64,000 nt of DNA from Kiritimatiellia bacterium (lineage in GTDB: Bacteria; Verrucomicrobiota; Kiritimatiellia; RFP12; UBA1067). The notes beneath the pieces are model-generated. The model was not told where the DNA came from. It did not search any database and saw only the letters and a list, made by a program, of their open reading frames with translations. Positions 58,395 to 59,606 of this stretch are shown here, piece after piece. The DNA lies in contig JAZLMG010000027.1 of assembly GCA_045598585.1 (NCBI GenBank), positions 4,380-68,379 of the forward strand. Direction: 5' to 3'. The position numbers and the translations under genes are program-made. The first letter of the stretch is position 1. Each line of letters opens with the position of its first letter.

Positions 58395-59606
58395 ATGGCT
58401 AAGGAAACATTTGACCGCGGCGGTAAGCCGCACGTGAACGTCGGCACCATCGGCCACGTCGACCACGGTAAGACCACGCTTACGGCCGCTATCACCCACG
58501 TCCAGTCCCTCAAGGGTCTCTGCGACGAAATCAAGTACGATCAGGTCGCTAAGGCTTCCGAGTCCGCCGGCCGTCGTGACGCTACCAAGATTTTGACGAT
58601 CGCTTCGTCGCACGTTGAATACGCGACCGAGAACCGTCACTATGCCCACGTTGACTGCCCCGGCCACGCCGACTACGTCAAGAACATGATCACCGGCGCT
58701 GCTCAGATGGATGGCGCGATCCTCGTCGTTTCCGCCGTCGACGGCCCGATGCCCCAGACCCGCGAACACGTCCTTCTCGCTCGCCAGGTCGGCGTTCCGA
58801 AGATCGTCGTCTTCCTCAACAAGTGCGTCCTCGTCGATGACGCTGAAATGCTCGACCTCGTCGAAATGGAAGTCCGCGAACTCCTTTCCAAGTATGACTA
58901 CGAAGGTGACGACGCCCCCGTTATCCGCGGCGCCGCTTATCCCGCCACCCAGGCTACGTCGAAGGACGATGCCGCGTGCGGTTGCATCACCGAGCTCATG
59001 AACGCTCTCGATACCTTCATCCCCGAGCCCGAGCGTGCCCTCGACCAGGCGTTCCTCATGCCTATCGAAGACATCTTCTCGATCGAAGGTCGTGGTACGG
59101 TCGTTACCGGCCGTGTCGAGCGTGGTATCATCAAGGTTGGTGAAGACGTCGAAATCGTCGGCCTCAAGCCCACGGCGAAGACGGCTGTTACCGGCGTTGA
59201 AATGTTCCGTAAGCTCCTCGATCAGGGTCAGGCCGGTGACAACATCGGTACGCTCCTCCGTGGTACCAAGAAGGAAGACGTCCAGCGTGGTCAGGTTCTC
59301 GCTAAGCCGGGTTCGATCACTCCTCACACCGAATTCCGTGGTCAGGTCTACGTCCTCACCAAGGATGAAGGTGGCCGTCACACCGCGTTCATGAAGGGCT
59401 ATCGTCCTCAGTTCTACATCCGTACGACTGACGTCACGGGTGACATTCAGCTCCCCGAGGGCGTTGAGATGGTTATGCCCGGCGACAACGTCGAGATCTC
59501 CGTCAAGCTCATCGCTCCTGTCGCTCTCGAAGAGAAGATGCGCTTCGCGATCCGCGAAGGTGGCCGCACGGTCGGCGCTGGCACGGTTTCGGCGATTATC
59601 AAGTAA
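58395..59606 (+). CDS. tuf: elongation factor Tu (canonical locus; atypical G2/G4/G5 motifs)
   Basis: 403 aa. G1 GHVDHGKT and G3 DCPGH are intact, and domains II/III are highly conserved. See the finding for NKCV, the AAY motif and the switch-I insertion. Confidence 0.9.

Follow-up and report, generated by a model that had tools for sequence, protein, structure and literature searches.

Switch I of the elongation factor EF-Tu controls GTPase activation, the switch between the GTP and GDP forms, and binding of aminoacyl-tRNA, and phage-defence proteases as well as toxins attack it. In the G4 motif (NKxD) of Escherichia coli EF-Tu, Asp138 hydrogen-bonds the guanine base. Its replacement with Asn reportedly abolishes productive binding of GTP and GDP and re-targets the protein to xanthosine triphosphate (XTP). 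A natural departure from the usual sequence is said to occur in planctomycete EF-Tu, in which a "unique 11-amino-acid motif" was described and held to be unique to planctomycetes. Here, we analyzed the tuf gene in a 64-kb stretch (the window) of contig JAZLMG010000027.1 from the Kiritimatiellia bacterium assembly GCA_045598585.1; what is said of this genome refers to these 64 kb. The encoded EF-Tu departs from the canonical sequence in switch I, G4, and G5. Sequence comparison makes it very probable that the gene is the housekeeping EF-Tu of Kiritimatiellia (Planctomycetes-Verrucomicrobia-Chlamydiae group, PVC), that its switch I and G5 are lineage traits, and that the valine found in G4 (Val145) lies outside this design.

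Canonical EF-Tu is represented by TufA/TufB of E. coli and by the Thermus protein (PDB 1EFC, 1DG1, 1OB2, and 1TTT). The window protein has the same three domains and, switch I apart, is about 72-78% identical to it. No difference is seen in G1 and G3, and the equivalent of Thr61, domains II and III, and the genomic locus also match. Three sites differ in their motifs. The canonical loop has nine residues (DxAPEExxR), whereas the loop of the window protein has 14 and contains neither PEE nor R-G-I. G5 reads AAY instead of SAL, and the Asp of G4 is replaced by Val, the latter in this assembly only.

Identity of the Gene and Its Nucleotide-Binding Motifs

The product of the gene matched the EF-Tu equivalog TIGR00485 with a score of 680.7 bits (cut-off 522.4), with residues 1-403 aligned to profile positions 1-394. 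Pfam domains PF00009 (GTP_EFTU), PF03144 (D2), and PF03143 (D3) were all found above the gathering score. The motifs were located in the translation (Table 1), and the protein was aligned to solved EF-Tu chains with HMMER and also aligned with MAFFT. In the HMMER alignment, switch I contains a five-residue insertion, KILTI is aligned to RGITI, Val145 corresponds to E. coli Asp138, and Ala180-Ala181-Tyr182 corresponds to Ser173-Ala174-Leu175. The MAFFT alignment likewise gave a switch I longer by five residues.

Within switch I, Arg58-Gly59 is changed to Lys-Ile and PEE to SES, and a conserved GRRD is inserted. Residues retained are Asp23 of the P-loop (E. coli Asp21) and Thr68, the equivalent of E. 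coli Thr61, which is a ligand of Mg and the gamma-phosphate; Leu67 keeps a hydrophobic residue at the "gate" position of Ile60. At G2, the Mg-coordinating Thr is kept and the surrounding D-x(4)-E-x(2)-RGITI signature is absent, as in every relative. The NKxD pattern is broken at G4 in this assembly and not in the family, and the S-A-L/K pattern of G5 is replaced by A-A-Y, which is kept as AAY or AAF in the subclade.

An earlier note on this DNA had described G1, G3, and domains II and III as textbook EF-Tu, G4 as NKCV with GTC at codon 145, G5 as GAAY, and switch I as roughly five residues longer, with PEE changed to SES and GITI to ILTI. The motif positions and Pfam matches, the translation (with exact coordinates), and both alignments bear this description out. 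The same note placed the gene at the canonical tuf locus, in agreement with the gene array.

Table 1. Positions of the tuf gene, its motifs, and the neighbouring genes in the window.
Feature	Position (nt)	Residues	Strand	Remark
tuf, elongation factor Tu	58395..59606	403 aa plus stop	+	TIGR00485 and Pfam
G1/P-loop	58452..58475	20-27	+	GHVDHGKT, canonical
Switch I	58539..58622	49-76	+	type A, 5 aa longer than canonical
G3/switch II	58653..58667	87-91	+	DCPGH with catalytic His, canonical
G4	58818..58829	142-145	+	NKCV in place of NKCD
Codon 145	58827..58829	145	+	GTC (Val); single A-to-T change from GAC at nt 58828
G5	58929..58940	179-182	+	GAAY in place of GSAL
tRNA-Thr(GGT)	58269..58344		+	upstream of tuf
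rpmG	59721..59870		+	ribosomal protein L33
tRNA-Trp(CCA)	59886..59959		+	
secE	59982..60179		+	
nusG	60184..60786		+	
rplK-rplA-rplJ-rplL	60860..62936		+	L11, L1, L10, L7/L12

Switch I and G5 in Related Proteins

Three sets of sequences were used for comparison. The closest relatives were 120 proteins with 86-97% identity to the window EF-Tu; the closest proteins are mostly metagenomic, and those bearing a source name are from Kiritimatiellia. A profile search gave 111 further EF-Tu proteins. A set of 80 diverse loci was taken from the matches listed in a whole-protein scan of a genome collection, among which there was no named Kiritimatiellia genome; the window and the fetched loci together provided 91 EF-Tu sequences. 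For the forms of switch I, we coined the labels C (canonical), type A, and type B. Type A is defined by the motif [VI]AKAS[EA]xxGRRDxxKI[LV]TI and is five residues longer than the canonical loop. The window protein conforms to this motif, as do 105 of the 111 profile-search proteins.

The AKASES-GRRD-KILTI switch I was common to 119 of the 120 closest relatives, the exception being an E. coli-type entry. G5 reads GAAY or GAAF in 117 of them. In an alignment of 120 type-A sequences, Y48, D49, V51-S55, G59-D62, and K65-I69 are invariant, a conservation equal to that of the P-loop. Judged from these alignments, the deviations in switch I and G5 are real, conserved lineage traits and not sequencing errors, and GAAY is a trait of this Kiritimatiellia subclade. 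The comparison with the family and with close relatives had been proposed in the earlier note; the relatives proved to be non-canonical at switch I and G5 too, so these two sites are no assembly error. We also considered whether G5 and switch I form one co-evolving unit. This idea was rejected, as SAL is kept at G5 by 77 of the 105 more distant type-A proteins and almost no class-specific residues occur outside switch I.

Valine at Position 145

In a column-by-column comparison with the 120 relatives, Val145 was the sole residue of the window protein that is unique at an invariant column. Asp is present at this position in 120/120 closest relatives, in all other 90 EF-Tu from the fetched loci, and in 111/111 profile-search proteins, including all 105 of type A; overall, it is kept in more than 300 other EF-Tu sequences. 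At the DNA level, we collected metagenome contigs matching 25 specified bases around the codon, CTCAACAAGTGCGNCCTCGTCGATGA, where N is the queried base. In 23 of 23 such contigs N was A, which gives GAC. A search with a 42-residue query around G4 was uninformative: it returned only fragments of 40-74 residues, 119 of them with Asp and one frameshifted. The exact protein with Val145 is recorded once only, on an NCBI contig of 80,666 bp that belongs to a draft metagenome-assembled genome.

The most direct comparison was provided by a conspecific contig (L082; run SRR28794445, 3,637 bp), which was located via the window NusG and is 97.5% identical in nucleotide sequence to window positions 57871-61508. 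Its NusG, SecE, L33, and L11 proteins are identical to those of the window. The two tuf genes share 98.9% nucleotide identity and differ in 13 codons, of which 12 are synonymous and the remaining one is codon 145 (GAC in the conspecific contig); apart from residue 145, the EF-Tu proteins are 100% identical. The only indels are single intergenic bases at 58390, 59681, and 60182, one of them in the A-run just 5' of the tuf start codon, and the coding sequences contain none. Over the approximately 4.8 kb compared with four conspecific contigs, nearly all coding differences are synonymous. Besides SRR28794445, the runs SRR21150844, SRR21150868, and SRR28408231 also contain conspecific strains.

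As the explanation of Val145, we favour an error in base calling, consensus building, or polishing. That the sampled population really carries Val145 as a recent, deleterious allele appears rather unlikely. These two readings are the parsimonious ones; a tolerated or functional change is still less probable, because Val145 is a singleton and no compensating substitution accompanies it. From the role of Asp138, Val at this position should cost orders of magnitude in affinity, together with the loss of base specificity. A fixed Val145 in a sole EF-Tu would be unlikely to be viable, because Asp138 serves in reading guanine. Compensation by a neighbouring Asp was also considered; Asp148 and Asp149 are present in canonical EF-Tu as well (NKCDMVDD), hence they are no substitutes. 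The earlier note had argued that three independent deviations vouch for each other against a sequencing error. This argument fails, as two of them are shared across the family and the third is confined to the assembly, and the case is a caution that deviations which seem to support each other can differ in origin. A check of the reads is needed before anything is built on the lost guanine-reading Asp.

Several points weigh against our reading of the gene as an ordinary housekeeping EF-Tu with an erroneous codon. No other suspicious substitution or frameshift was seen in the 4.8 kb compared, so the assembly is not visibly error-prone. The conspecific strains are about 1% divergent, and a priori an isolated substitution is then more often a true single-nucleotide variant than a short-read consensus error; the consensus sequence alone cannot separate an error from a real allele. 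With 64 kb in view, a further tuf elsewhere could make Val145 tolerable. Lastly, we infer the normal function of the type-A loop from sequence, and there is no confident AlphaFold model of the loop.

A different explanation would take the three sites together. It assumes a lineage-specific EF-Tu with joint changes in switch I, G5, and G4, by which, e.g., guanine specificity could be relaxed or the nucleotide swapped. All three sites border the nucleotide pocket, and the equivalent of an S173A change in G5 drops a hydroxyl that, by analogy with Ser145-Asp119 in Ras, would buttress the Asp of NKxD. Also absent from switch I is the Gly by which the monovalent-cation site of translational GTPases is recognised (PMC4342817). 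However, the Asp of G4 is kept throughout the lineage with no exception, the conspecific protein is the same except for Asp145, which means that nothing co-evolved with Val, and G5 is uncoupled from switch I in the type-A proteins that keep SAL. We regard this explanation as very improbable. Accordingly, of the lineage-specific EF-Tu with altered nucleotide handling that the earlier note had envisaged, the first half stands for switch I and G5, whereas the altered handling does not, as the relatives all have Asp in G4.

Genomic Context and Copy Number

The gene order tRNA-Thr/tuf/rpmG/tRNA-Trp/secE/nusG/rplKAJL constitutes a conserved housekeeping array. Compared with its nearest NCBI relative (L001, 89% nucleotide identity), the window tuf shows 100 synonymous and 14 non-synonymous codon differences; by this count, the gene is under strong purifying selection. 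A pseudogene or decaying copy was ruled out by the intact open reading frame (ORF) and by a synonymous divergence (dS) far above the non-synonymous one (dN).

No second tuf was found within the window. Two Kiritimatiellia EF-Tu proteins were looked up by exact sequence: P0016 on nine contigs, and P0361 on the 23 contigs read, the longest listed contig being 3.8 Mb. On all of them tuf is located upstream of secE-nusG-rplK, with rpmG called between tuf and secE on most, and a tuf adjoining fusA was never found for either protein on these contigs. The same tuf-secE-nusG context was seen in all PVC-type loci fetched.

These data bear on two further explanations. In the first, Val145 is a genuine fixed allele, and a second intact tuf has let the window copy start to drift or decay. 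Two tuf genes are common in bacteria, an alphaproteobacterium with a type-A switch I has two, the window covers 64 kb of an 80.7-kb contig, and nothing else in the assembly points to an error. Nevertheless, we consider this explanation improbable. A decaying copy is at odds with the comparison with the conspecific contig (12 synonymous differences, one non-synonymous, and no further protein change), and the second tuf it calls for was not found in the window, while Kiritimatiellia EF-Tu was seen solely in the secE-nusG context on the 9 and 23 contigs. Moreover, gene conversion normally homogenises duplicate tuf genes and would erase Val145.

The second explanation, also raised in the earlier note, is a diverged, specialised second tuf, with a canonical EF-Tu of the RGITI type encoded elsewhere. 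Specialised EF-Tu paralogues do exist in other phyla, e.g., actEF-Tu2 of Actinobacteria (PMC4342817). In the case of the window gene, the 100:14 ratio of synonymous to non-synonymous differences, the conserved array, the single context in relatives, and a score far over the equivalog cut-off argue against this proposal, and the second tuf next to fusA that the earlier note had looked to was found neither in the window nor beside the Kiritimatiellia homologs. Elsewhere among bacteria, both tuf loci of the alphaproteobacterium encode type A, and EF-Tu of the alternative form is encoded at fusA-tuf-rpsJ in Gemmatimonadota, the Candidate Phyla Radiation (CPR), and Bdellovibrionota. A specialised second copy is thus highly unlikely. 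On the sequences compared, nothing speaks for a change of nucleotide specificity in the lineage, nor for a second, diverged copy of tuf.

Two other long ORFs were observed in the window. The one at 38235-47840 (+) encodes 3,201 residues with no Pfam match at E ≤ 0.001. The other, at 53073-55013 (+), encodes 646 residues with no NCBIfam or Pfam match and is located upstream of genes for a HAD phosphatase and lolCDE-like genes.

Distribution of the Alternative Switch I

In the 91 EF-Tu sequences, switch I occurs in three discrete forms with no intermediates (Table 2). A regular expression of the PS00301 type (the PROSITE signature of translational GTPases) recognised every canonical sequence (65/65) but no alternative one (0/26). 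The alternative forms are present in at least six further groups beyond planctomycetes. No PDB chain with a type A or type B loop was found. The literature search likewise turned up no open-access paper that describes the alternative switch I or examines its function or structure.

Table 2. Forms of switch I in 91 EF-Tu sequences and hosts of the alternative forms.
Form	Motif	Length	n	Hosts
Canonical (C)	IDxAPEExxRG-ITI	reference	65	
Type A	VAKASESxGRRDxxKI[LV]TI	+5 aa	19	Kiritimatiellia; Lentisphaerota (P0294); two Gemmatimonadota contigs; Planctomycetota (Phycisphaerales, Sedimentisphaerales, and Planctomycetaceae metagenome-assembled genomes, MAGs); CPR (Saccharibacteria MAG, L007); Hyphomicrobium-like alphaproteobacterial group (L004, P0297, P0306 with 375 cluster members, P0353)
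Type B	IAKGG[TI][VD]RDxxKxVTI	+2 aa	7	Pirellula-like metagenome contigs; Myxococcaceae MAG; Bdellovibrionota MAG; Taylorbacteria MAG

The hosts of the alternative forms were confirmed by the flanking genes, as ribosomal protein S10 matches the respective host group. S10 beside the type-A alphaproteobacterial gene L004 shares 95-96% identity with its counterparts at alphaproteobacterial loci that have canonical EF-Tu. At the fusA-tuf-rpsJ locus of Gemmatimonadota, the type-A loci L052 and L102 share 95% S10 identity with L033, a locus of the canonical form. At the same locus in CPR, L007 carries type A and L051 type B, and their S10 proteins are 78% identical. The occurrence of different switch I forms at the same locus in close relatives suggests repeated replacement of the loop.

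In a Hyphomicrobium-like alphaproteobacterium from TARA ocean data, identical type-A EF-Tu is encoded at both classical tuf loci, i.e., in the contexts rpsL-rpsG-fusA-tuf-rpsJ (L124:3001-4209) and tuf-ybjQ-secE-nusG-rplK (L123:3001-4209). Since both loci encode it, type A is the working EF-Tu of this organism and not an accessory one. The related alphaproteobacterial loci L012 and L023 encode canonical EF-Tu.

Some individual entries were unusual. EF-Tu of Sedimentisphaerales (L006:4001-5224) contains a further insertion of about five residues in domain III, GGVLAIKSREGKAAEM, which is not found in the other type-A sequences. The profile searches were headed by E. coli/Salmonella "EF-Tu" entries of 472-531 residues (P0118, P0255-P0258), because their duplicated part scores twice. 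In the one that was read (P0118), the G-domain/domain II region is duplicated internally; this entry is most likely a tufA/tufB mis-assembly.

Possible Mosaic Origin of the Loop

Outside switch I, almost no residue separates the alternative class from the canonical one. When switch I was masked, types A and B were scattered among host-like groups in a neighbour-joining tree. The two parts of the type-A alphaproteobacterial protein L004 were then compared separately with alphaproteobacterial canonical EF-Tu. Domains II-III gave a mean identity of 80.7% (maximum 85.2%), against a mean of 84.5% for alphaproteobacterial proteins among themselves. For the G domain minus switch I, the mean was 75.5%, against 83.8%. 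With 79-81% identity, Gemmatimonadota type A is a closer match to the G domain of L004 than the canonical EF-Tu of alphaproteobacteria is. The type-A genes of CPR show the same domain-wise pattern. These simple identity counts from a small sample fit, in a preliminary way, a scenario in which a G-domain segment bearing the loop was transferred and then recombined with the gene already present.

As a tentative explanation, somewhat short of even in our estimate, the switch I loop (types A and B) may be a self-contained, horizontally mobile module of the G domain, and intragenic recombination may have put it in place of the "universal" effector loop in unrelated lineages, in each case in their only EF-Tu. 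These lineages would be Kiritimatiellia, Lentisphaerota, Planctomycetota, some Gemmatimonadota, CPR, Bdellovibrionota, Myxococcota, and the Hyphomicrobium-like alphaproteobacterium. If this is true, RGITI is dispensable for a translational GTPase, and one might see a hint that selection favours evasion of agents directed at the canonical loop, e.g., Lit-type proteases; any such driver is pure speculation.

Proposed Function and Structure

From the retained catalytic core, we infer that type-A EF-Tu would carry out a normal GTP-dependent cycle of aminoacyl-tRNA delivery with a re-built effector loop. In translational GTPases, the binding of a monovalent cation has been attributed to Gly59 of switch I (PMC4342817). 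As this contact is made via the backbone, it may persist in type A.

AlphaFold prediction from 30 close relatives gave a mean predicted local distance difference test (pLDDT) score of 64.6 and was unusable. With 120 sequences the mean pLDDT rose to 85.1, with residues 57-71 (switch I) and 90-98 (switch II) below 50. Residues 48-59 were modelled as a helix; the insertion supports no structural conclusion, given the pLDDT below 50 at residues 57-71.

The Gly59-Ile60 bond of EF-Tu, which we take to be the cut site of the protease Lit, is absent in the alternative form, and escape from loop-targeting agents as a driver is speculative. Cleavage of EF-Tu by Lit, a phage-exclusion protease, has been described (PMC9712102).

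Comparison with Known Systems

The specialised EF-Tu paralogues (actEF-Tu2/Tuf3 of Actinobacteria and SelB; PMC4342817) likewise belong to the EF-Tu family and have a G domain that has diverged. They are extra copies at loci of their own and evolve faster, whereas the window gene occupies the housekeeping locus under strong constraint. The features of a secondary paralogue were not found: dS is far above dN, the relatives have one context, and there is no second copy in the window. In re-targeted GTPases (D-to-N XTPases and YchF-type ATPases), the NKxD substitution is family-wide, whereas Val145 is a singleton.

The engineered XTP-dependent EF-Tu with Asp138Asn is altered at the same residue of NKxD, which contacts N1 and N2 of guanine. 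Asn re-targets that protein to xanthine; in contrast, Val provides no hydrogen bonding, and only weaker binding and lost specificity would be expected from it. Moreover, Asp138Asn was introduced by design, whereas Val145 is known from one draft assembly only and is unverified.

The motif of planctomycete EF-Tu is probably the same phenomenon as the one described here, in which the only EF-Tu of a PVC lineage has a switch I that was re-written. The Pirellula-type sequences (L088, L090, L092, and L101) carry type B (IAKGGTVRDxxKxVTI, two residues longer), whereas the window protein carries type A, which is five residues longer. A scattered and sizeable set of bacteria translates with an EF-Tu that lacks RGITI, a signature treated as universal. 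This natural alternative loop is a ready-made probe of which parts of switch I are required, and its patchy, apparently mosaic distribution calls for caution when EF-Tu is used as a phylogenetic marker. The alternative switch I, possibly spread by recombination, is the sole part of this case worth following up. The window gene belongs to a known, under-studied kind of EF-Tu, the one with a re-written switch I of the planctomycete type.

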